IMG/VR virus record: IMGVR_UViG_2513237219_000007
Span: 1 to 37,503 of that record
From: a virus
Lineage: Duplodnaviria > Heunggongvirae > Uroviricota > Caudoviricetes
DNA length: 37,503 nt
Strand: one strand, 5' to 3'
Part shown: positions 7,645-37,503 of the stretch, piece after piece
Layout: every line of letters starts with the position of its first letter
Position numbering within the stretch: the stretch's first letter is position 1
The notes under the pieces: model-generated
What the model saw: only the letters and a program-made list of their open reading frames with translations
The model's database searches: none
What the model was told of the DNA's origin: nothing
Translations under genes and position numbers: made by a program

Positions 7645-8817
7645 TTACGCGCTGACCTGGCTGGCGAAATTCACCAGGTACTGATCGGTGATGCGCTGAC
7701 GCAGCATCAGGTTTTCAAGTGGCGGCACTGGCGTGTAGTCGTAGTCGATGGTGAGTTTTCCGGCTTTCAGCGTGTCTTTGTCGTTCACCGACTCATCCAG
7801 CCAGCAATCACCACCAATGAGATAGCCCTGACTGACCAGGCTGCGCATTTTGGCGCGGATACCTTCGATAATGTCGCGGGCCAGCGACGGGTTAAGCGGT
7901 TTATCCACCGCCCACATGTGTGCTTCTGCCATCGTGTCCATCAGCACCTGCGCCGTGCGGGTGTAGTTTTCGAAGGCAAAGAGCGGGTCATCACTCAGGC
8001 AGCGGGAACCCCAGAAGCGGAAACCGTCTTTACGCACAAGCGTGGTGACGTCGTTCTGGTTCAGCAGACCTGCATCGGTTGCCGGGTTCTGCAGATCCCA
8101 GAACACATCTGCAGAAATTCCGGTGACACCGTTCACGCCCACGTTGGACAGGCTTTTGTGCCATCCGGTCTGCTCGTCAATTTTGGCGCGCAGACCAAGC
8201 GCACGGGCGGTGGCATATGCCGTTGCTTCGGCATTCAGCACCGTGTCCCAGCCAGTAAAGTCAGGCCAGATCAGCATCCCTTCGCGCTGGCTGAAGTTTT
8301 CGCGGTAAGTGATCGCCTCCTGCACTGTCTTGCAGCCATACGCTGACAGGTAAGCAAATCCACGCAGGCTTTGCGCCACGCTCAGCAACTCAGTAGCTAC
8401 CGCCTTGGTGTCGTGGCCTGGCACGCCGAGAATGCGCGGTTTAACGCCGAGCTGTGACTGGGCAGATAACAGGGCTTTCATACCTGTTTTTTTACCTTCA
8501 GCAGTCACTGCGCCGATGATATTGGTCGTGGTTTCGTCTTCCGTTTCACCCTGCGGCACACGCACAACAATGGTCACGGGTTTTGCCTGGTCAGCGATGG
8601 CATCCAGCGAACGGGCCAGAGTACCTGACTCACCCGCTTTACCGCTGGCAGTCAGCACATCAGTGATCAGCACGGGTTTATTAAGAGGAAACATTTTTGC
8701 ATCGGCATCATCGCCCGTGCAGACCATACCCACGATGGCGGTGCTCACCGTGGTAATAGATCGGGTGCCTTCGTTGACTTCAACAACGCGCACCCCGTGG
8801 TGGTAATCCTGAGCCAT
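7645..8817 (-). CDS. Tail sheath protein gpFI
   Basis: 390-aa ORF, P2 FI-like ([19 protein letters not shown]...). Confidence 0.9.
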
Positions 8818-8893
8818 AGTGGCGAACCTCCTGATTGGATTAGGCTTCGCCCTATGTTGAAGTGATTGTGCCTGACAAACAGCTAAGCGCAGT

Positions 8894-8911
8894 TGTGTCG
8901 TTATTCACACA
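8894..8911. promoter_or_regulatory. Candidate Ogr-binding dyad of late promoter P_F (TGT-N12-ACA)
   Basis: TTGTGTCGTTATTCACACAA in the 142-bp region upstream of FI; extended TTGT..ACAA dyad shared with the sites at 14945 and 20853. Confidence 0.5.
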
Positions 8912-8959
8912 AAATAACGGTATTTGTCTGCTTGCAGGGATAATCAACATAATGCTGAT

Positions 8960-9532
8960 TCAGGGGGATTCATTGATCTTATTTGCCGGAAATTTTCTAT
9001 AAATGGTAGAAACGCCTACATCAAAAATCAGTGCAATACGCTGTATTGATTCTCCGGCCTCGAGTAAACGCCCAATCTGTGCCCACTGTTCGGTGGTCAA
9101 CTTAGGACGGCGTCCACCTACTCTGCCTTTGGCACGAGCTGCAGCCAGCCCTGCCCTGGTACGTTCAACTATCAGTTCGCGTTCCATTTCAGCCAGGGCA
9201 CCCATGACATGAAAAAAGAAACGGCCCATTGGGGTACTGGTATCAATACTGTCAGTCAGGCTTCTGAAATTCACACCACGCTGGCGCAACTCTTCTATCA
9301 GCGTAACAAGATGCCGCATACTGCGCCCCAACCTGTCCAGCTTCCAGACAACCAGCGTGTCTCCTGCCGATAGTGTCCTGAGTAGTTTTTTCAGCCCCGG
9401 TCTGTCGGACTTAGTGCCACTGATTTTGTCCTCAAAAATCTGCTCACATCCCGCGCAGTTCAGTGCATTACGTTGCAAATCGGTGTTCTGGTCATTTGTT
9501 GACACGCGTACATAGCCAATAAGCATGATCAT
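8960..9532 (-). CDS. Serine-recombinase DNA invertase (Hin/Gin/Cin/Pin family)
   Basis: 190-aa ORF, MLIGYVRVSTNDQNTDLQ... with catalytic Ser motif and C-terminal HTH; adjacent to the tail-fibre inversion site. Confidence 0.9.
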   Translation of the reverse strand: MIMLIGYVRVSTNDQNTDLQRNALNCAGCEQIFEDKISGTKSDRPGLKKLLRTLSAGDTLVVWKLDRLGRSMRHLVTLIEELRQRGVNFRSLTDSIDTSTPMGRFFFHVMGALAEMERELIVERTRAGLAAARAKGRVGGRRPKLTTEQWAQIGRLLEAGESIQRIALIFDVGVSTIYRKFPANKINESP

Positions 9533-9581
9533 CCCCCTGAATAAAAACCGGAGATGATGCCAGTTAGCTGTTACCTCTGCA

Positions 9582-9607
9582 TTTTCTTAAACGTTGGTTT
9601 GGGAGAA
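9582..9607. repeat. Left inversion crossover site (hix/gix-like, 26 bp)
   Basis: TTTTCTTAAACG TT GGTTTGGGAGAA; its reverse complement shares 14 bp (TTCTCCCAAACCAA) with the site at 11413..11438. Confidence 0.65.
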
Positions 9608-9952
9608 GCGGCGAAAAGGGATGTGGGCACAGGAGATAATCAGATACCGGATATGGGAGCATTCGCTTCTGGTTCGGGATGGTTCAGGCTACCAGGTGGA
9701 TATATTGTTCAGTTTGGCACTTTTTCAGGAAACACGACCCGCTTTATCAGTGGACACTTCCCTATACCATTCCCTAATCAGCCGATGGTTTCAGTCAGTG
9801 TTATGTCTGATGCCGTTCAGTCAGACCCGTCGAATCCTGCCCCGCAGGTTTTGTCTGTAAATTTTGAACATATCAGTAATTCAGCGTGGCGTGTGGCAAC
9901 CAGTGATATCTCACAGCAATACAGATTCAGTTATATTTCGATAGGACGGTAG
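9594..9952 (+). CDS. Silent alternative tail-fibre C-terminal cassette (expressed only after inversion)
   Basis: Open frame running from the crossover core; begins with the same GLGE codons as the active H variable part; followed by its own tail-fibre assembly gene. Confidence 0.65.
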
Positions 9953-9954
9953 AA

Positions 9955-10395
9955 ATGCAGAAATATATTTTCAGTGCCGATAAAAATGCGTTTTTCCCTG
10001 TGGAGCTTAAAATCGCTTATCAGGAATCCGGCGAATGGCCCGATGATGGAATCGAAATTGACGACACTGTTGCCGCCGAATTTATGAAGGAAGCACCAGA
10101 AGGAAAATACAGAGGTGTCATCGACGGAATGCCTGCATGGATTGATATTCCACCGCCAACTCATGAGGAACAAATTGCCGCAGCCGAACTGGAAAAGCAG
10201 CAATTGATTAATCAGGTCAACGAATACATAAACAGTAAGCAATGGCCTGGTAAAGCGGCGATTGGTCGCCTGAAAGGTGAGGAACTGGCGCAATATAATT
10301 TGTGGCTGGATTATCTGGACACACTGGAACTGGTCGATACTTCCGGTGCGCCAGATATTGAATGGCCTACGCCTCCGGCAGTTCAGGCCAGATGA
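9955..10395 (+). CDS. Tail-fibre assembly protein (alternative, partner of silent cassette)
   Basis: 146-aa ORF with tail-fibre-assembly-like C-terminus (DTSGAPDIEWPTPP); convergent with the active tfa gene. Confidence 0.75.
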   Translation: MQKYIFSADKNAFFPVELKIAYQESGEWPDDGIEIDDTVAAEFMKEAPEGKYRGVIDGMPAWIDIPPPTHEEQIAAAELEKQQLINQVNEYINSKQWPGKAAIGRLKGEELAQYNLWLDYLDTLELVDTSGAPDIEWPTPPAVQAR

Positions 10396-10960
10396 CATCC
10401 GGCGCAGTGCTGGTATCTGTTACCGTCACCGCGTCAATATAATCCAGCACGGCGTTAAGTCGGGTTGTTTCTGCCTGCGTCAGCTTCCGCCCGGCCTGTA
10501 ATTTCAGTTGAATCAGACTGATGGAAGCCATTGCAGCATCAATCAGCGACTGGCGCTGTGCTTCTGCCGCGTCTACTGCGGCACTATGCTGTGCCTCAGT
10601 ATCTGTCACCCATTTCTCACCATCCCATTTATCGTATGGCGTTAACGGTGAAAGCGTGACATAACCGTCTTTGATGGCACCGATATAATCCACTGTAACA
10701 GCTGCGCCATTTTCGATTGAGTAAACAGTCTCATTGCGGTGGTCTTCTTCATGGCTCCATCCCTTACCCGTAAATACTGCCACTTTCCCCGGAATGTATT
10801 CGCCCGGGTCAATACCAGTGGAACAGGCGGGCATGCTTACGCCAGTATTAATATATTCATCAGACCAGCCCGTATATTCAGACGTTACTGCATCATAATA
10901 AAAACAACGCATATCACCCGGCACTGTAGCCAGCCCATTTTCATCAAAAACAGGTTTCAT
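10367..10960 (-). CDS. Tail-fibre assembly protein gpG (active orientation)
   Basis: 197-aa ORF, P2 G-like; start shares one base with the H stop (TAATG). Confidence 0.8.
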   Translation of the reverse strand: MKPVFDENGLATVPGDMRCFYYDAVTSEYTGWSDEYINTGVSMPACSTGIDPGEYIPGKVAVFTGKGWSHEEDHRNETVYSIENGAAVTVDYIGAIKDGYVTLSPLTPYDKWDGEKWVTDTEAQHSAAVDAAEAQRQSLIDAAMASISLIQLKLQAGRKLTQAETTRLNAVLDYIDAVTVTDTSTAPDVIWPELPEA

Positions 10961-12474
10961 TATGCAGCCCTCACAATATAATTAAAGGCGATGTTACGTG
11001 GACGGTTTTCATTAGCTGTTGGCACGACACGAGAGGCGTCGAATCCAAGGTCATCGGTTTTGTCTATAGTAGTTGTGTTATTCGGCATTCTCGCTGATCG
11101 TGTTCCTGCATCGTAAAAAGCCCCTCTGATTGCATCAAAAGACATACCGATCCCGCCATCTGCGAATCCCTCAATATTTCTTATTGCATCCCCCTGTGAA
11201 GATAATAATTGTCGCCCGGCATCCACTCCACGTCCGTCATCCCAGCCACGAATAAATTCACCGCGTAAATCAGGCAATTTATTTGTCGGATAAACCTTTG
11301 CCAGTTCCGGGTATTCTTCAGCAGAAAAAGCCGCACCATTGCATTTTAGCCAGCCTGTTGGCGGAGTGGCGGAAGGCCACGGGACAGGCACACCAACGGG
11401 TAATGCCGAACCTTCTCCCAAACCAAGGTATGTGAGAAGACCAGCTACATCCTTTCCACTCAAATTGGTAAGCGTATTGTCCAGCGGTTGTTTACCTGCC
11501 AGCGCATTAAGCATTGTCGTGGCAAAGTTCGGATCATTCCCCAGTGCCGCCGCCAGTTCGTTCAGTGTATCCAGTGCAGCAGGTGCAGAACCCACCATTC
11601 CTGCAATCGCCGATTTCACAAAAGCCGTAGTGGCAATCTGTGTATTGTTGACCGACTGCGCCGCCGTGGGGGCTGTTGGCGTTCCGGTGAGTGCCGGACT
11701 CGACAACGGTGCTTTTAGTGCCAGCGCATTGTTAATGGTGGTACTGAAATTCGGATCATTGTTAATGGCTGCGGCTATTTCTTTCAGCGTGTCCAGCGTG
11801 GCTGGCGCACCATTAATAAGGGCCGTCAGTGCCGCCTGTACAAACGCAGTGGTCGCAACCTGCGTGGTATTATTCCCCGCCGCTGGCGTTGGCGCTTTGG
11901 GGGTTCCGGTAAATGTCGGGCTGGCTTTTGGCGCGTACTGTGAATGCGGGTCCGGTGCGGCAAGATGTTTTGCCATCTGATCATCCGCGTACACCTTCAG
12001 CTCCAGTGCCTTGTCATCCACATACTTGCGGGTTGCCAGCACTACAGCAGGGTCGATTTTCAGGGTGATATTGTCCGTGCTGCTGGTAATCAGCACCATG
12101 CGCACGGTCTGGGTGCGCCCGCTACCTTCAGCCAGTTGCGGCTTATAGCTTTCCGGGCAGTTGCCCACGGCAATCAATGCCCCGGACTCATCAAACAAGC
12201 CCACTTCACGTATCCACCAACCGCCCTCGTTTTCAGGGATCACCTGTTCGGCAATAATCTGGCTGCTGTTCTGCGGGTCGATATAAAGCATATTCAGCGC
12301 AGCCCGGCGTTTCTCATTTACCAGTGCCGTCTGCTTTGCGTCCGGCGTTGGCAATACTCCACTGCCATCGCCCACCGCCATATGGGTAATTTTTAGCGGC
12401 ACACCGAGCGCGGCGGCGCTGGCAAGTTTCGCCGCGCCAATATCCGTCAGCAGGGTATAAAATTTTGTGCTCAT
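10960..12474 (-). CDS. Tail fibre protein gpH (constant N-terminal part plus invertible C-terminal part)
   Basis: 504-aa ORF with an internal tandem repeat of about 73 aa (TTAFV..DTL..E.AAA..NDPNF.TT..NALA.K.PL); inversion crossover inside the gene at codon 350. Confidence 0.85.
   Translation of the reverse strand: MSTKFYTLLTDIGAAKLASAAALGVPLKITHMAVGDGSGVLPTPDAKQTALVNEKRRAALNMLYIDPQNSSQIIAEQVIPENEGGWWIREVGLFDESGALIAVGNCPESYKPQLAEGSGRTQTVRMVLITSSTDNITLKIDPAVVLATRKYVDDKALELKVYADDQMAKHLAAPDPHSQYAPKASPTFTGTPKAPTPAAGNNTTQVATTAFVQAALTALINGAPATLDTLKEIAAAINNDPNFSTTINNALALKAPLSSPALTGTPTAPTAAQSVNNTQIATTAFVKSAIAGMVGSAPAALDTLNELAAALGNDPNFATTMLNALAGKQPLDNTLTNLSGKDVAGLLTYLGLGEGSALPVGVPVPWPSATPPTGWLKCNGAAFSAEEYPELAKVYPTNKLPDLRGEFIRGWDDGRGVDAGRQLLSSQGDAIRNIEGFADGGIGMSFDAIRGAFYDAGTRSARMPNNTTTIDKTDDLGFDASRVVPTANENRPRNIAFNYIVRAA
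11413..11438. repeat. Right inversion crossover site inside tail-fibre gene H
   Basis: TTCTCCCAAACC AA GGTATGTGAGAA, inverted relative to the site at 9582..9607. Confidence 0.65.
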
Positions 12475-13076
12475 GGATTCACTCTCATTGTGTCAATAAC
12501 ATGGACCGCCCCGCCTTCATGCGCGGTGCCACCGGAAATAATCGTTTCGTTGATATACGGATAGATCGTGATTTCTTCGCCAAGATAGCTGGCGGCTCCC
12601 ACCCAATGCGGGCCGCTGGTCTGCAGATTGATGGACATGCCGATCATGTGGCGGCTACATGGTTTGGCATCGCTTATCAGTCGCTCAAGTTCCAGATAGG
12701 TATCTTCAGTGATGCCCTGGTCCTGCACGCCGATATCCAGGCGAAACGTGCCCGGTGTTTCTCCGGTCTGCCACCACTCAATAATGCGGATCAGGAATCC
12801 GAACGGCTCCACCACCCGCCGCACGGCACTGGTGGTCCCTTTATGCTGATGAATATAAAAAGCATCCTTCACCACCTGGCGCTTGACGCTTTCTGTCCAG
12901 CCCTCGTCCCAGCGATCCACAGAGAACGCCCAGGCGAGATAAGGCAGGAAACTGACCGGACAGGTTGCCGGATTCCACAAGTCACGAAGCGGCACCTGCA
13001 GATCAGAAATCCCGCTGCAGGTTTGCGCCAGTCGGCGCTCCAGTGGTGTTGAACCCGGTGGCAGCAGACTATTCAT
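12471..13076 (-). CDS. Baseplate assembly protein gpI
   Basis: 201-aa ORF at the P2 I position. Confidence 0.8.
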   Translation of the reverse strand: MNSLLPPGSTPLERRLAQTCSGISDLQVPLRDLWNPATCPVSFLPYLAWAFSVDRWDEGWTESVKRQVVKDAFYIHQHKGTTSAVRRVVEPFGFLIRIIEWWQTGETPGTFRLDIGVQDQGITEDTYLELERLISDAKPCSRHMIGMSINLQTSGPHWVGAASYLGEEITIYPYINETIISGGTAHEGGAVHVIDTMRVNP

Positions 13077-22683: not shown

Positions 22684-23718
22684 TGGGAAAGAGTAAGAAG
22701 AACCGCGCTGCGGCGACGAAACAGATCCAGCTTAAAAGTCAAACTACAGCCGAAGCATTCAGCTTCGGCGATCCCGTTCCTGTTCTGGACCGCCGAGAAC
22801 TGCTGGATTATGTGGAATGCGTACAGATGGACCGCTGGTATGAGCCGCCCGTCAGCTTTGACGGACTGGCGCGCACCTTCCGCGCTGCCGTTCATCATAG
22901 TTCCCCGATTGCAGTAAAGTGCAACATTCTGACCAGCACCTACATCCCTCACCCGCTGCTCAGCCAGCAGGTCTTTTTCGCGTTTTGTGCAGGACTATCT
23001 GGTATTTGGTAACGCCTACCTGGAGAAACGCACGAACCGCTTCGGTGAAGTTATCGCCCTTGAACCTGCCTTGGCAAAATACACCCGACGCGGGTTAGAC
23101 CTGGATACCTACTGGTTTGTGCAATACGGTATGACCACGCAGCCATATCAGTTCACGAAAGGCAGCATCTTTCATCTGATGGAACCGGACATCAACCAGG
23201 AGATCTACGGCCTGCCCGGTTATCTTTCTGCTATTCCATCCGCCCTGCTCAACGAGTCTGCCACGCTGTTCCGCCGCAAGTATTACATTAACGGCAGTCA
23301 TGCAGGCTTCATCATGTATATGACCGACGCCGCGCAGAACCAGGAAGATGTGAACAACCTCCGCAACGCGATGAAAAGCGCCAAAGGCCCTGGCAACTTC
23401 CGCAACCTGTTTATGTACTCGCCTAACGGCAAAAAGGACGGGCTTCAGATCATCCCGTTGTCAGAAGTCGCAGCGAAAGATGAATTTCTGAACATCAAGA
23501 ACGTGAGCCGGGACGACATGATGGCTGCACACCGCGTACCGCCTCAGATGATGGGAATTTTGCCGAATAATGTTGGGGGGTTTGGGGATGTGGAGAAGGC
23601 AAGTCGGGTATTTGTTCGTAATGAATTAATACCTTTGCAAAAACGTTTCGAAGAATTAAATTTATGGCTAAAAAATAATATTATTACATTCAAAGAATAT
23701 CAACTATCCCTAGACTAA
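22680..23718 (+). pseudogene. Portal protein gpQ, interrupted by a +1 frameshift in a T5 run
   Basis: Two ORFs (22680..23012 and 22987..23718) together span 1039 nt (about 346 codons, P2 Q-size); frame switch maps to the T run at about 22974..22978; removing one T gives continuous ...LLSQQVFSRFVQDYLVFGNAYLEKR... Confidence 0.8.
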
Positions 23719-23723
23719 TTAAT

Positions 23724-23744
23724 AACCACCTCTATGAGGTGGTT
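23724..23744. terminator. Bidirectional hairpin between convergent Q and the AT-rich orphan gene
   Basis: AACCACCTC-TAT-GAGGTGGTT, perfect 9-bp stem. Confidence 0.5.
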
Positions 23745-23765
23745 AACAAGAATAAACCTAATTAA

Positions 23766-25175
23766 TTACTCATCTACTCTGATTTTTTGTTTTTTATTAT
23801 TTTGAGTTAAGACATTTATGGTAATAGATGTATACGGATGAAAGTCAGGAACTATACTTTTAACCTCTCCATTTTCAAGAAAATGATGTGCTATTGAAGG
23901 AAATAAATCAGGATCTACAGGATATTTAGCATTAGGATTATGATACATATTTAAACCTTCTGCCCATGTTTCTGTAATATCGCCTTCTTTCACTTCAAAA
24001 CTAAATGCTGCTGGATATAATGCCTCTGGGTCATGATCATGGCAGTAACCACTCCTAAATAATCTAAGGTCACTTCTTCCAAAACCAGCCAGTTTTCCCA
24101 TCCGATTAAACTTCGATATAGTACCACTATTAGAACTAAGGACGGCCGAAATATTTTCAGACTCATCCAAGAAGAAAAAGCCTGAAGGAATTTCCTTTTT
24201 CTCAAATTGATGCGATATAATTTTCTTAGTTGCTAAACTGTAACATCCATCTTCAGATTTAACATGCTCATAGCGAATACCATAAAGATACTGCCAAAGT
24301 GCACTATGGGACCAAATCATAGAGTTTGGTTCATGAAAATCAGCAATTGCGAAAATTAAAGGATTCCCCTTAACATGTTCTAGATCCCAGTATCGAGTTT
24401 TCTTTTTCAGTTTAGAATAGAGAGAACTTCCAAATTTAATCGGCATATAATTCTCTATTTTCTCTAGCAATTCTTCCTTACTTTTAGGTTCTGATAGCAT
24501 TTCAGATGATTGATTAATATCATTCCCTGTTGGATTAACCGTTACAGCTTCAATGCAAATAGTATTACCATACTTACGTGCCACATAATCAGGGGCATTA
24601 AACTGCCTATCTAGCCAAAAGTGTTCCTCTCGTAAATATGCGAAAAGATATAACTCCCATAGCCGGGCATCAAAACCTGTTGTCTGAAACTGCTCTATAA
24701 AATTCCCGTCGACATCCTCAAAATGATTCATCATTTCCTTGATTATCCCTGTTGCAGGCGACCAGTTCGCGTATTTACCAAATAATGAAAAATGATGATG
24801 AAGTTTATCTGGTGTAACTATAGGTGTGAATAAATCCATTGCTTTATAAGTTTCATCACCTTGTGGAAATACTTTTACGTTTAATTTAGTATGCTTCCGC
24901 ATTAATTTCTTTAGTTTTGCTCGTGCAGAATTCATTTCTGAAACACTAGTAAATAGGTCAATACATCTATATCTCCCACTTAAGTCTCTTGCTAAAACAA
25001 TACCGCTATAATCTTCATCGATTTGATCCAATAATAGTGCCCCTAGCAGGAACTCTCTCGGACTACAGTACCACTCAAACTCATAGCCTAAAAGTTCAGT
25101 ATTTGGCATTCTGGTCCAATCAACAAAAGCATTAAACCTCTCTTTACTCATTTTTTTTATATCAAGAAAAGACAT
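23766..25175 (-). CDS. Hypothetical protein, AT-rich cargo gene between portal gene and putative cos (candidate defence/accessory gene)
   Basis: 469-aa ORF with strongly AT-rich codon usage (roughly one-third GC by eye) against a GC-rich phage backbone; GAGG RBS; no family recognised by me. Confidence 0.6.
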   Translation of the reverse strand: MSFLDIKKMSKERFNAFVDWTRMPNTELLGYEFEWYCSPREFLLGALLLDQIDEDYSGIVLARDLSGRYRCIDLFTSVSEMNSARAKLKKLMRKHTKLNVKVFPQGDETYKAMDLFTPIVTPDKLHHHFSLFGKYANWSPATGIIKEMMNHFEDVDGNFIEQFQTTGFDARLWELYLFAYLREEHFWLDRQFNAPDYVARKYGNTICIEAVTVNPTGNDINQSSEMLSEPKSKEELLEKIENYMPIKFGSSLYSKLKKKTRYWDLEHVKGNPLIFAIADFHEPNSMIWSHSALWQYLYGIRYEHVKSEDGCYSLATKKIISHQFEKKEIPSGFFFLDESENISAVLSSNSGTISKFNRMGKLAGFGRSDLRLFRSGYCHDHDPEALYPAAFSFEVKEGDITETWAEGLNMYHNPNAKYPVDPDLFPSIAHHFLENGEVKSIVPDFHPYTSITINVLTQNNKKQKIRVDE

Positions 25176-25272
25176 CTTTCTACCTCATCACGAAAAAATA
25201 TTTTTTCCTAAAAAGACTTAAGTTAGCTTAATCTATTGATAAAAAAAAGCTAAGTAACGACCAAATACGCGC

Positions 25273-25291
25273 GCTCGTATCCCCGCCACGC
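25273..25291. other. Candidate cos site (cohesive-end region)
   Basis: Minus-strand GGCGTGGCGGGGATACGAG resembles the P2/186 19-nt cohesive end as I recall it (GGCG[A/T]GGCGGGGAAAGCA...); lies between the replication/SOS genes and Q as expected. Confidence 0.4.
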
Positions 25292-25341
25292 CTGCCCGCT
25301 TTATGTAGTGGTTTTCATGCACCTGCATGATCTACGCAAAA

Positions 25342-25361
25342 GCCCGCCAGTTCTGGCGGGC
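25342..25361. terminator. Hairpin downstream of the tum/DinI-like operon
   Basis: GCCCGCCAG-TTC-TGGCGGGC followed by TTTTG on the minus strand. Confidence 0.45.
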
Positions 25362-25496
25362 CTTAGCAAAAACGATCCTCAAACGATCATGCGATCTCAT
25401 GCGGCATAGACATGCACTACAGAGCTAACGCCTCGCAAGGGCTCGTTGTTCAACCTTGCTGACGCCAGAAGCAAGTTCAGACGCCAGCAACGTTTC

Positions 25497-31949: not shown

Positions 31950-32065
31950 AGTGCAGTATCTCTTAGTTTGGTTTCGTTTTATCTTGTTTTATGTGGTTTG
32001 GTTTTGCTTTTCAAACCATGAATGGATATTAAGATCACTTTTTATATGCGTCAAGAGGTTTGATT
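31950..32065. promoter_or_regulatory. Immunity switch region (lytic pR and CI operators expected)
   Basis: AT-rich 116-bp region between divergent apl and cI containing repeated TGGTTTGG / TTTCAAACCA motifs. Confidence 0.4.
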
Positions 32066-32698
32066 ATGAGTTTAATCAAGGCGGGGAATGATAGTGGTGG
32101 GCGCGATGCGATTAATAGGCTTATTAAGGCTTACAACTTCAGCTCACGACAGCAGCTCTGCGAACATCTGGAAGTATCAAAAAGCACTATGGCTAACAGA
32201 TACTTAAGGGATAGCTTTCCTGCCGAATGGGTAATCCAATGTGCCCTTGAAACAGGAGCTTCCCTTCTATGGCTGGCTACTGGTCAAGGAGATATGTATG
32301 CGTGTGAGAACGAAGAAACAAATCTCAAAAATGAACCTCCCGTCACTGTAAGACCACTTTCTAAGATCGTTGCTCCTAGCATCAAACGTGTTGAACTGAA
32401 GAACGGCGAACTGCAGCCAAGTGATGAAATTCTTCTTGATAGCAGCCTGCTCGATGGTGACTCATCCAACGCTTTATTTGTTAAAACAGCTAATGATAGC
32501 TTTGTAGTGGATACGTCTGTTAAACAAGTCAGTAATGGCTTCTGGTTAGTCGATATGGACGGAGTTAAAAGCATCGTCAAAATTGCGCGCATACCCGGAA
32601 ACAAAATAGTAGTTAACCAAGATGACACTTCATTTGAATGTTCTGTAGATGATGTGGAAGTCGTAGGACGTGCAGTCAAAGTAATCAAGAACCTCTAA
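32066..32698 (+). CDS. cI: CI immunity repressor (186 CI-type)
   Basis: About 210 aa; N-terminal HTH (CALETGASLLWLATGQG) and C-terminal LWLVDMDG...FEC..DD...GRAVKV, as in 186 CI; AAGAGG RBS before the ATG at 32066. Confidence 0.8.
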   Translation: MSLIKAGNDSGGRDAINRLIKAYNFSSRQQLCEHLEVSKSTMANRYLRDSFPAEWVIQCALETGASLLWLATGQGDMYACENEETNLKNEPPVTVRPLSKIVAPSIKRVELKNGELQPSDEILLDSSLLDGDSSNALFVKTANDSFVVDTSVKQVSNGFWLVDMDGVKSIVKIARIPGNKIVVNQDDTSFECSVDDVEVVGRAVKVIKNL

Positions 32699-32701
32699 CT
32701 T

Positions 32702-33742
32702 ATGACCATCAGAAAACAGCCGAACGGAAAATGGTTGTGTGAGTGCTATCCCAATGGACGCAATGGTAAGCGCGTGCGTAAGCAATTTGCTACCAAAGGC
32801 GAAGCCATTGCGTTTGAAAGCTTCACAATGGAAGAAGTGAACAAAAAACCATGGCTAGGGGAAAAGGAAGATCGGCGACATCTATCAGAATTAATTGAGC
32901 TGTGGTATTCCCTGTATGGTCAAACACTCGCAGACCCCAAGCGCCTCATGGCGAAACTTAGAATTATCTGTAATGGTCTAGGCGATCCCATCGCCTCAGA
33001 ACTGACAGCTGGTGAGTTTACGAAATACCGCGAAGCACGGTTAAAAGGTGAAGTACGAAATGAAGATGGCACGCTTATGTCGCCCGTTAAGCCCCGCACG
33101 GTAAATCTTGAACAGCGCAACCTATCATCTGTTTTTGGTACACTGAAAAAGCTGGGCCACTGGTCAGCCCCCAACCCGCTTGCTGGGCTGCCAACATTTA
33201 AAATTGCTGAGGGTGAATTGGCGTTCCTGACCCCGGAAGAAATTAAACGTCTGCTGGATGCCTGTGCTGATTCTCAAAGCCCCAGTCTGCTGATGATTGC
33301 AAAAATATGCTTGGCCACCGGCGCACGCTGGAGCGAAGCCGAAAACCTACAGAGTCATCAGGTATCAAAATACCGTATCACTTATACCAAGACTAAAGGA
33401 AAGAAAAACCGAACAGTGCCTATTTCAAAGGATTTATATGAAGAACTGCCTAAGAATAGGGGAAAATTATTTACACCTTGTAGGAAAGCTTTTGAACGTG
33501 CGGTAAAACGAGCTGGTATCGAGCTACCAGAAGGGCAATGCACACACGTATTACGACATACATTTGCAAGTCACTTTATGATGAATGGCGGAAACATACT
33601 GGTGCTGCGCGATATTCTGGGCCATGTCGATATAAAAATGACAATGATTTACGCCCACTTCGCTCCCGACCATCTGGAAGATGCTGTAACCAAAAATCCT
33701 CTTGCTAACCTTGGATGGAGAAAATTAGAAAGTGCTTGTTAA
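32702..33742 (+). CDS. int: Tyrosine integrase (P2/186 Int family)
   Basis: 346-aa ORF with the catalytic region HVLRHTFASHFMMNGGNILVLRDILGHVDIKMTMIYAH. Confidence 0.9.
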   Translation: MTIRKQPNGKWLCECYPNGRNGKRVRKQFATKGEAIAFESFTMEEVNKKPWLGEKEDRRHLSELIELWYSLYGQTLADPKRLMAKLRIICNGLGDPIASELTAGEFTKYREARLKGEVRNEDGTLMSPVKPRTVNLEQRNLSSVFGTLKKLGHWSAPNPLAGLPTFKIAEGELAFLTPEEIKRLLDACADSQSPSLLMIAKICLATGARWSEAENLQSHQVSKYRITYTKTKGKKNRTVPISKDLYEELPKNRGKLFTPCRKAFERAVKRAGIELPEGQCTHVLRHTFASHFMMNGGNILVLRDILGHVDIKMTMIYAHFAPDHLEDAVTKNPLANLGWRKLESAC

Positions 33743-33898: not shown

Positions 33899-35093
<1,195 letters not shown>

Positions 35094-36176: not shown

Positions 36177-36273
36177 ACGTCTATTGTCGTCCAGTGAGAA
36201 TTGCTGAGAACTATCACTTATGGCACCCTGAATGGGACCCACTAAGAAGGGTCCAAAAACCGAGGGTCCCAAA

Positions 36274-37503
36274 ATGGCAAAAATCGCTAAGAAGCTCACT
36301 GACACTGAAATCAAAAGCACCAAGCCAGCCGACAAAGAAATCAACTTGTTTGACGGAGATGGTTTGATACTACGAATCGCTCCCCTCTCGAAAGGAGGAA
36401 AGAAGAATTGGTATTTCAGGTATGCAGTGCCAGTCAGTAAAAAAAGAACCAAAATGAGCCTTGGGACATATCCTCACCTTACACTGGCAAGAGCCAGAGC
36501 CTTACGAGATGAATACCTTTCCTTGCTTGCTAATGGCATTGATCCCCAAGTTCATAACAACGATAAAGCTAATGCCTTAAAGAATGCTACTGAACACACT
36601 CTCCAAGCCGTGGCAAGGAAATGGTTGGATGAGAAGGTAAAGACCTCAGGTATCTCACAAGACCATGCAGCAGACATCTGGCGCAGCTTAGAGAGAAATG
36701 TCTTTCCTGGCCTGGGTAATGTCCCTATCAATGAGATCCGACCTAAGATCTTAAAACAACACCTTGATCCTATTGAGCAACGAGGCGTATTGGAAACTCT
36801 ACGCCGCATCATTTCACGTCTGAATGAAATCTTCCGGTGGGCAGCCACTGAAGAACTTATTGAGTTCAATCCGGCTGACAACCTTGGTCAAAGATTCAGT
36901 AAACCAAAAAAGCAAAATATGCCTGCCCTTCCCCCAAGCGAATTGCCAAGGTTTATGGAATCTTTGACGAATGCGTCAATCCGGCTGGAAACACGTATGC
37001 TAATTGAATGGCAATTGTTGACATGGGTTCGTCCGGGTGAAGCCGTTCGCGCAAGGTGGTCTGATATTGATACAACCAACAACATTTGGAACATTCCTGC
37101 TGATTTTATGAAAATGAAAAAGCCTCACAAAGTTCCTTTGAGTAAAGAAGCTTTGCACATCCTTGAATTAATGAAATCAATAAGTGGGCATAGAGAATGG
37201 GTTTTCCCCAGCATTAAAGCGCCTCTTAATCATATGCATGAACAAACAGCCAACGCAGCTATTATCCGAATGGGGTTTGGAGGCGAACTTGTAGCTCACG
37301 GTATGCGTTCGATTGCAAGAACAGCGGCAGAGGAGTCTGGTAAGTTCAGAGCTGAAGTTCTTGAGGCAGCACTCGCCCACTCTAAAAAAGATGAAATTAT
37401 CGCAGCATACAATCGTGCAGAATATCTGATAGAACGACAGAGTTTGATGCAATGGTGGAGTGATTACGTTCAAACTCAAAGAGCTAAAGCTATCGCTGCT
37501 TGA
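36274..37503 (+). CDS. intA: P4-type tyrosine integrase (IntA-like) of a second ssrA-associated island
   Basis: MAKIAKKLTDTEIKSTKPADKEINLFDGDGLILRIAP...KRTKMSLGTYPHLTLARARALRDEYL resembles the E. coli CP4-57 IntA N-terminus; GAGGGT RBS; stop at the window end. Confidence 0.85.
   Translation: MAKIAKKLTDTEIKSTKPADKEINLFDGDGLILRIAPLSKGGKKNWYFRYAVPVSKKRTKMSLGTYPHLTLARARALRDEYLSLLANGIDPQVHNNDKANALKNATEHTLQAVARKWLDEKVKTSGISQDHAADIWRSLERNVFPGLGNVPINEIRPKILKQHLDPIEQRGVLETLRRIISRLNEIFRWAATEELIEFNPADNLGQRFSKPKKQNMPALPPSELPRFMESLTNASIRLETRMLIEWQLLTWVRPGEAVRARWSDIDTTNNIWNIPADFMKMKKPHKVPLSKEALHILELMKSISGHREWVFPSIKAPLNHMHEQTANAAIIRMGFGGELVAHGMRSIARTAAEESGKFRAEVLEAALAHSKKDEIIAAYNRAEYLIERQSLMQWWSDYVQTQRAKAIAA

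Follow-up and report, generated by a model that had tools for sequence, protein, structure and literature searches.

Site-specific inversion systems of the Gin/Hin/Cin/Pin family (Din) use a cis-acting enhancer bound by Fis, with two Fis sites 48 bp apart that typically lie in the 5' end of the invertase gene. Inversions of this kind in P2-like prophages are already known from EPEC E2348/69 and from Fin of Fels-2: flipping has been measured in the P2-like prophages of EPEC (PMC4272514), and a tail-fibre inversion in Fels-2 between LT2 and LT7 was attributed to fin (PMC7953296). For e14, the repeat of the pix site, TTGGTTTGGGAGAA, has been published (PMC12529663), and experiments in E. coli have followed loci of this kind as they flip (PMC4272514, PMC12529663).

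We conclude with high confidence that the locus described here, in the tail-fibre operon of a P2-family prophage at ssrA, is a Din-type inversion switch. The window, that is, the whole stretch of 37,503 nucleotides analysed, follows the P2 arrangement of late genes (…V W J I H G / FI FII E T U D ogr), has capsid and terminase genes of P2 type, and is collinear with annotated P2-type prophages at 95-99% identity. The anatomy, reading frame and enzyme family are established for this prophage, and genome comparison shows that both orientations exist naturally in near-identical prophages; the activity of the window copy, its Fis dependence and its effect on host range we infer. The switch is intact and real, but it is an ordinary and already documented feature, another copy of a textbook bet-hedging device common in E. 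coli P2-family prophages, and near-identical phage records already carry the invertase annotation. Biologically it is nothing new. Its features are as follows.

8960..9526, minus strand: DNA invertase gene, a small serine recombinase of Gin/Pin/Hin type, 188 aa (Pfam, PHROG, PDB)
9442..9504, no strand: candidate Fis-dependent recombinational enhancer in the invertase 5' end (by homology; two Fis-like 15-mers)
9582..9607, no strand: left crossover site, TTTTCTTAAACG-TT-GGTTTGGGAGAA, core 9594-9595 (repeat search, 14-mer count, palindrome scan)
9596..11424, no strand: invertible segment between the cores, 1829 bp, or 1831 bp core to core (in-frame in-silico inversion; opposite orientation in other genomes)
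9596..9952, plus strand: silent alternative C-terminal cassette of H, 118 aa, gp53-like_C type (Pfam Gp53-like_C, 3e-9)
9955..10395, plus strand: TfaP-like tail-fibre assembly (chaperone) gene of the silent cassette (Pfam Caudo_TAP, 2e-34)
10367..10960, minus strand: TfaE-like tail-fibre assembly (chaperone) gene of the expressed cassette (Pfam Caudo_TAP, 1.5e-26)
10960..11424, minus strand: expressed variable C-terminal part of H, residues 351-504, Collar type (Pfam Collar, 1.3e-14, residues 361-408)
11413..11438, no strand: right crossover site, TTCTCCCAAACC-AA-GGTATGTGAGAA, core 11425-11426, inside H codon Leu350 (repeat search, 14-mer count, palindrome scan)
11427..12474, minus strand: constant N-terminal part of H, residues 1-349 and the first base of codon 350 (Pfam Phage_tail_fib N-terminal, 1.5e-64)

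The recombinase is built like a small serine invertase, about 190 aa long with the catalytic domain (Ser9/10) at its N-terminus and an HTH at its C-terminus. A Pfam search matched Resolvase (2.9e-53) and HTH_7 (6.4e-16), PHROG 125 'DNA invertase' matched at 9e-101, and the Gin structures 3uj3/4m6f in the PDB matched over residues 1-184, its full length, at 4e-92; an NCBIfam search of five proteins of the locus returned no specific model, its recombinase matches all being sub-threshold. The protein is 86% identical to PinE of e14 and 75% to Gin of Mu, and the catalytic Ser9 is present in MLIGYVRVSTNDQ. The coding sequence most likely starts at 9526 (MLIGYVRVS..., like Gin and PinE) rather than at the ATG at 9532 to which the frame extends. 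At Gin-aligned positions it carries RPGLKKLLR (K,K,..,R) and QIGRLL (Q..RL), which we take, placing them by the Hin sequence, to correspond to Hin 47/48/51 and to Gln151, Arg154 and Leu155. Basic residues at 47/48/51 together with these last three are reported to be uniquely conserved in Fis/enhancer-dependent invertases (PMC3798978), and the window invertase has the full set.

A degenerate consensus, which gives about 1-1.3 chance matches per 650 nt, picks out two Fis-like 15-mers inside the 5' end of this gene, with centres at 9497 and 9449, 48 bp apart. The proximal 15-mer lies 97.5 bp from the crossover core, and the distal one fits GNNYRNNWNNYRNNC at gene position +71 in the window invertase, Mu gin and e14 pinE alike. 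This DNA is highly conserved with gin and pinE, and homology suggests that 9442..9504 may act as the enhancer. A perfect 12-bp inverted repeat also flanks the invertase gene (8958-8969 / 9531-9542), its arms taking in the SD region and the final codons. A conserved RNA pairing at long range and the edge of a cassette were weighed as explanations; neither pinE nor gin nor the SKA5 invertase has the repeat, and we treat it as probably lineage-specific or due to chance.

The crossover sites stand out by several measures. The top result of an inverted-repeat search was the pair of arms 9582-9608 and 11412-11438 (27 nt, 81% complementary), and the 14-mer TTCTCCCAAACCAA has just two copies in the 37.5 kb, one at 9594-9607 on the minus strand and one at 11413-11426 on the plus strand; by simple arithmetic, about 0.02 exact 14-nt inverted pairs are expected by chance in 3.6 kb. 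Both sites have the gix/pix-like 12-2-12 layout, with identical 2-bp cores in inverted orientation. The left site aligns with the Mu gix upstream of gin, and the published e14 repeat has exactly the sequence of its inner half-site. A palindrome-aware half-site scan of the whole window scored the two sites at 18/20 and 19/20 and everything else at 14/20 or lower, so that it offers no third crossover site for a multi-site shufflon. Shufflons of the Min/p15B, three-site EPEC or Rci/R64 types were likewise rejected: there are two sites only, and the enzyme is of the serine type, whereas Rci-type enzymes are tyrosine recombinases.

H itself occupies 10960-12474 on the minus strand and encodes 504 aa. 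The earlier note had described a Hin/Gin-type invertase next to a segment of about 1.83 kb bounded by inverted 26-bp sites, the right one at codon 350 of H, with tips that begin with half-site-encoded GLGE codons, each followed by its own convergent assembly gene, and had predicted that inversion swaps the H C-terminus and chaperone. All of these elements are where it placed them, and its reading of the switch is supported. The right core TT forms the second and third bases of codon 350 (CTT, Leu); the left TT, 9594-9595, takes the same two places in a GTT codon of the ORF 9554..9952, and GLGE is encoded by GGTTTGGGAGAA on both sides (9596-9607 in the alternative ORF). The two Caudo_TAP genes converge and overlap by 29 bp, and inversion at the cores in silico gives an uninterrupted, in-frame H' of 468 aa. 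One detail needs correction. The left-site ORF does share the codon phase of H relative to the core, as had been said, but its given extent of 9594..9952 does not hold: position 9594 is the start of the core and not a codon boundary, the ORF called mechanically from there (9594..9860) is in another frame, the codon-aligned frame is 9554..9952 and the cassette 9596..9952.

The silent cassette matches the C-terminal end of PHROG 2557 (positions 399-533 of 534), and the first 14 codons of the ORF in which it lies form a hydrophobic leader. That the two tips belong to different domain families, Collar and gp53-like_C, is consistent with recognition of different receptors. A consensus scan of 8700-12700 gave 6 promoter-like sites (4.7 expected) and 8 terminator-like sites (4.1 expected), not clearly above shuffles; the same scan, with counts that barely separate from shuffles, placed no promoter-like site upstream of ORF 9554.

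We propose that invertase dimers would bind both 26-bp sites, which would then synapse, probably with host Fis on the enhancer within the invertase 5' end; cuts at the 2-bp cores and rotation would invert the 1.83-kb segment. Since codon 350 of H contains the right site, orientation would decide which tip and chaperone are made: H(1-350) with the Collar-type tip and the TfaE-like chaperone as in the window, or H(1-350) with the gp53-like tip and the TfaP-like chaperone in the opposite state. With one tip and chaperone per orientation, a lysogen population would therefore release particles of two receptor specificities.

Other genomes carry both states. The earlier note had suggested searching for both orientations, a check that we approximated on public genomes with a positive outcome: among complete E. 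coli genomes, 54 carry the junction as it stands in the window and 31 the exact junction predicted for the inverted state, the latter at up to 99.8% identity over 800 nt. Comparison with inverted genomes places the breakpoints within the repeats, at 9594-9608 and 11412-11429, with unchanged flanks; near-identical prophages with the segment opposite and the flanks unchanged include ERP001 copy 2, EC02 and APEC-O117H42. In other genomes the cassette that is silent here continues the H N-terminus in a 468-aa fusion protein, which PGAP annotates as an intact CDS of matching length. In the ERP001 record CP063214, the first 25.9 kb repeat the last 25.9 kb at 99.5-99.8% identity with the 1.84-kb segment inverted, an untrimmed terminal overlap that shows the same 99%-identical prophage in both orientations. 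This duplication therefore implies that both orientations were present in one sequenced culture, and the ERP001 invertase differs from that of the window by one residue. As a separate observation, the record origin of one further public assembly falls inside the invertible segment.

The window copy does carry an unusual allele. Residue 161 of its invertase, in the DNA-binding domain and equivalent to Hin Arg162, is Ile, where Mu Gin and four of the close relatives compared have Arg, and the exact 59-mer with the Ile161 allele occurs in 33 of 505 matching records. The change of Arg161 to Ile in the HTH might thus have crippled site binding and left the switch locked as a fossil, with the Collar tip frozen or flipping only through a host Pin (PinE, PinQ or that of another prophage) acting in trans; such trans action is plausible because the sites are identical to those that PinE and PinQ use in e14. 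We consider a locked copy improbable, as the allele is spread across many unrelated strains with an intact ORF, and strain PM4-5 has an invertase identical to that of the window. Additionally, the six Ile161 carriers examined occur in both orientations, two as in the window (L018, L019) and four inverted (L015, L016, L017, L020), with differing cassettes, which is only suggestive as to the activity of the allele.

It is extremely unlikely that the two orientations seen across genomes stem from phages trading cassettes, through homologous recombination or horizontal transfer, rather than from ongoing site-specific inversion: the segment clearly moves as a module (in phage SKA5 the tail backbone is different and the invertase matches at only 95 of 188 positions, yet the segment is 99.7% identical) and related prophages vary in cassette content, but the breakpoints lie exactly at the crossover sites with unchanged flanks, the assembly of one culture (ERP001) holds both orientations of the same prophage, such loci flip experimentally in E. 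coli (PMC4272514, PMC12529663), and module exchange and inversion are not mutually exclusive.

Within an active inversion switch, the silent tip might have a role of its own. The e14 chimera StfE2, with leader MPFACYFFIFINVGLGE, was recently claimed to mask receptors and so keep other phages from adsorbing (PMC12529663). By analogy, the ORF 9554..9952, which lies next to the invertase gene, is nominally promoterless and joins the hydrophobic leader MMPVSCYLCIFLNVGLGE to the currently silent tip, could be expressed in the lysogen and by itself mask receptors against other phages, and the switch would then place host defence, along with the host range of virions, under phase variation. We hold this to be very doubtful, and the likeness of the two leaders may simply reflect conserved invertase-promoter and site DNA. 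Whichever tip is in use, a two-state tail-fibre gene can mislead the annotation, host-range prediction and assembly of a prophage.

Site-specific inversion at this locus compares readily with the described systems. The G segment of Mu with Gin and the C segment of P1 with Cin share the enzyme family, the 26-bp inverted sites with one inside the tail-fibre gene, the Sc-Sv-U / U'-S'v layout followed by the invertase gene, the convergent chaperone genes and the conservation of the invertase 5' end at the DNA level. The Mu core dinucleotide is TC/GA in contrast to TT/AA in the window, the Mu segment, at 3 kb, has long variable parts, and the tips are unrelated, BLASTP matching neither S nor S' of Mu and U' only weakly.

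The P segment of e14 in E. coli K-12 resembles the locus in its invertase, PinE, whose gene likewise adjoins the segment, in an identical inner half-site and TT/AA core, in a crossover at the same ...GLGE motif and in size (1797 bp versus 1831 bp). It also pairs a Collar tip (60% identity between the expressed H tip and StfE) with a TfaE-like chaperone (63% to TfaE), and a gp53-like_C tip with a TfaP-like chaperone (55% to TfaP). The kinship of the window gp53-like tip with StfP is at family level only, BLASTP matching just the GLGE junction. The two differ in setting: e14 has a short StfP stub of a defective lambdoid element, whereas the window has a constant part of P2 gpH type (53% identity to P2 gpH over residues 1-329) in a prophage with full head, tail, lysis and replication genes.

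At the invertase position P2 itself carries fun(Z) and lacks an invertase, and many P2-like records carry the invertase module, in keeping with the earlier note's view of it as an accessory feature in this family. The P2-like invertible loci of Fels-2 (Fin), EPEC E2348/69 and phage 500465-1 share the slot between tail-fibre and tail-sheath genes and the mechanism. Escherichia phage 500465-1 (Wadgaonvirus) is 98% identical to the window region over 67% of its length, and its invertase, annotated 'DNA invertase', differs by one residue. Of the two EPEC loci, one is a three-site, four-state shufflon, whereas the window locus has two sites. Otherwise nothing of substance separates the window locus from these P2-like loci, among which cassette alleles vary between strains.

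We found that the tail-fibre segment beside the invertase gene occurs in both orientations in E. coli genomes. Queries of 800 nt across the right junction, as found and in the predicted inverted form, were searched in 5,426 complete E. coli genomes with a cut-off of ≥80% query coverage, and matched 54 and 31 genomes, respectively, the inverted form with a top identity of 99.8%. At the inverted loci, BLAST against the window leaves the flanks unchanged and reverses the strand of 9594-11429 alone, which puts the breakpoints inside the repeats; the fibre protein that PGAP annotates there has 468 aa, as expected from in-silico inversion. The most telling case is the ERP001 record (NZ_CP063214.1), whose prophage is 99% identical to that of the window, with an invertase differing by one residue. 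Its first 25,885 bases repeat the last ~25.9 kb at 99.5-99.8% identity: the overlap of the circular assembly was left untrimmed, and frameshift errors occur at the ends. The copies differ only in the 1.84-kb segment, which lies in opposite orientations. Thus, both orientations were present in one sequenced culture, and a "complete" RefSeq chromosome partly represents one prophage twice. In EC02 (NZ_CM169499.1), which encodes these prophage proteins too, the segment is inverted and the origin of the record falls within it. Among related prophages, that of APEC O18 has a short variant segment, with a gp53-like fragment beside the invertase and a single chaperone gene; the segment of CFSAN051542 is interrupted by IS1, and EC931 has a disrupted H gene.

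ORF listing and Pfam searches of the window place five genes within 8960-12474, and PHROGs are consistent with Pfam (9e-101 for DNA invertase, plus tail fibre and tail-fibre assembly families).

Genes of the invertible locus
8960-9532, minus strand: invertase (Pfam Resolvase 2.9e-53 and HTH_7 6.4e-16)
9554-9952, plus strand: ORF matching Pfam Gp53-like_C (3e-9)
9955-10395, plus strand: tail-fibre assembly gene, or chaperone (Pfam Caudo_TAP 2e-34)
10367-10960, minus strand: tail-fibre assembly gene, or chaperone (Pfam Caudo_TAP 1.5e-26)
10960-12474, minus strand: tail-fibre gene H, 504 aa (Pfam Phage_tail_fib N-terminal 1.5e-64; Collar 1.3e-14)

The invertase likely starts at 9526, giving MLIGYVRVS as in Gin and PinE. 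The two tail-fibre assembly genes converge and share their final 29 bp (10367-10395), so that both strands are read in the last codons of each; e14 tfaP/tfaE and relatives also overlap by 29 bp. Translation of the constant part of H reveals, at residues ~195-325 (window 11500-11900), two similar ~55-aa stretches, TQVATTAFVQAALTALINGAPATLDTLKEIAAAINNDPNFSTTINNALALK and TQIATTAFVKSAIAGMVGSAPAALDTLNELAAALGNDPNFATTMLNALAGK, which form a tandem fibre-shaft repeat.

The top inverted repeat of the region in a repeat search is 9582-9608/11412-11438, and the crossover sites have a 12-2-12 layout, TTTTCTTAAACG-TT-GGTTTGGGAGAA on the left and TTCTCCCAAACC-AA-GGTATGTGAGAA on the right. A 14-mer common to both has no further copy in the 37.5-kb window. 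The two sites score 18/20 and 19/20 in a palindromic half-site-pair scan of the window, which returned no third crossover site, all other candidates reaching at most 14/20; the locus is therefore a switch with two sites, as opposed to a shufflon. In alignment, the left site corresponds to the gix upstream of Mu gin, and the inner half-site, TTGGTTTGGGAGAA, exactly matches the inverted repeat of the e14 P segment, as published (PMC12529663) and as checked on the e14 sequence.

Inversion joins the two cassettes in frame. Codon 350 of H is CTT (Leu), with the core TT supplying bases 2 and 3, and in ORF 9554-9952 the left core likewise forms bases 2 and 3 of its codon, GTT. Thus, the ORF proposed in the earlier note, 9594..9952, was right in phase, its core holding the same codon position as in H, but was not codon-aligned, as a mechanical ORF from 9594 is in another frame. 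The note's claim that both variable parts open with identical GLGE codons is borne out by GGT TTG GGA GAA directly after the core on either side. So is the in-frame alternative cassette at exact boundaries: in-silico inversion of 9596-11424 yields an open frame of 468 aa without a stop, in which H(1-350) runs into GLGE-AAKRDVGTGDNQ...ISIGR.

The sequences of Mu Gin crystal structures are matched along their entire length by the invertase (4e-92), which is 86% identical to e14 PinE and 75% to Gin and retains the catalytic serine. Residues reported to be uniquely conserved in Fis/enhancer-dependent invertases are the basic residues of helix B and Q..RL of HTH helix 1 (PMC3798978), and both signatures are present (RPGLKKLLR and QIGRLL). 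In its 5'-terminal 200 nt, the gene shows high DNA conservation with gin and pinE and contains two Fis-like 15-mers centred on 9497 and 9449, 48 bp apart, the proximal one 97.5 bp from the crossover core. This spacing fits the ~100 bp described for Hin (PMC3798978); as the Fis consensus is weak, we infer the candidate enhancer by homology. A perfect 12-bp inverted repeat, ATTCAGGGGGAT/ATCCCCCTGAAT, flanks the invertase gene (8958-8969 and 9531-9542), its arms covering the Shine-Dalgarno region and the final codons plus stop. This repeat is absent around pinE, gin and the SKA5 invertase, and is thus lineage-specific or due to chance.

Residue 161 of the invertase is Ile (ATA, codon 9044-9046) in place of the Arg of Gin and four close relatives. 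Of 505 matching E. coli records, 33 contain this codon in an identical 59-nt context, so Ile161 is a genuine allele rather than a sequencing error; strain PM4-5 carries an identical invertase. Six Ile161 carriers were examined, two in the window orientation and four inverted, which suggests that the allele is active, a suggestion and not more because their cassettes differ. Since the window's sites equal those of e14, trans action by host PinE or PinQ is possible as well.

The window opens with smpB and the tmRNA gene (ssrA, 698-1060), beside which the prophage is integrated. From D to cII it is collinear with annotated prophages of P2 type, and it has a CI-type repressor and integrase in 32060-33742, its own integrase being 32702-33742. 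Next come an IS that encodes a DDE_Tnp_1 transposase (33995-34948) and another integrase gene, distinct from the first and truncated by the end of the window (36232-37503); with smpB/ssrA adjoining, the arrangement suggests that islands lie in tandem at ssrA. Escherichia phage 500465-1 (Peduoviridae, Wadgaonvirus) matches the locus region at 98%, and its record annotates a 'DNA invertase'. The backbone is ≥80% present in at least 169 complete E. coli genomes. A 469-aa minus-strand ORF (23766-25175) matches the PADLOC model PD-T7-1, a single-gene anti-phage defence, at 1.3e-196 and has no Pfam match. It sits at the P2 'old/tin' hotspot, between the portal and replication genes, and 23625-25425 lacks a counterpart in the otherwise collinear ERP001 prophage.

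P2 carries fun(Z) between G and FI without an invertase, whereas the window prophage has one. P2 gpH is 53% identical to the H constant part. In e14, StfE is 60% identical to the expressed tip, TfaE 63% to its chaperone and TfaP 55% to the silent chaperone, with the same pairing of one Collar and one gp53-like_C tip. With these affinities, the best description of the module, from sequence, is a P2-type fibre shaft onto which an e14/Pin-type P segment has been grafted. The entire invertible segment (window 9590-11427) also occurs at 99.7% identity in phage SKA5 (OR670062, 3001-4838), which differs in having a Mu/e14-like baseplate, unrelated flanks and an invertase agreeing at only 95/188 positions. 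The segment appears to be exchanged between phages as a unit bounded by its crossover sites.

Mu, P1, e14 and p15B provide the classic examples of tail-fibre segments inverted by Din-family invertases. Among P2-like prophages, Goldberg et al. measured flipping in two of EPEC E2348/69, one two-state and one four-state (PMC4272514), the Fels-2 tail-fibre inversion has been ascribed to fin (PMC7953296), and a recent survey describes a DNA invertase with adjacent inversions at this P2 hotspot (bioRxiv 10.1101/2024.10.15.618418). By analogy with e14 StfE2, for which an anti-phage receptor-mask role is claimed (PMC12529663), there is a slight possibility that the invertase-proximal ORF is expressed and acts likewise. 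Judged by sequence, the locus has the testable defining features of Din-family invertible tail-fibre segments, its enhancer being a candidate, and it departs from described loci in its cassette alleles alone.
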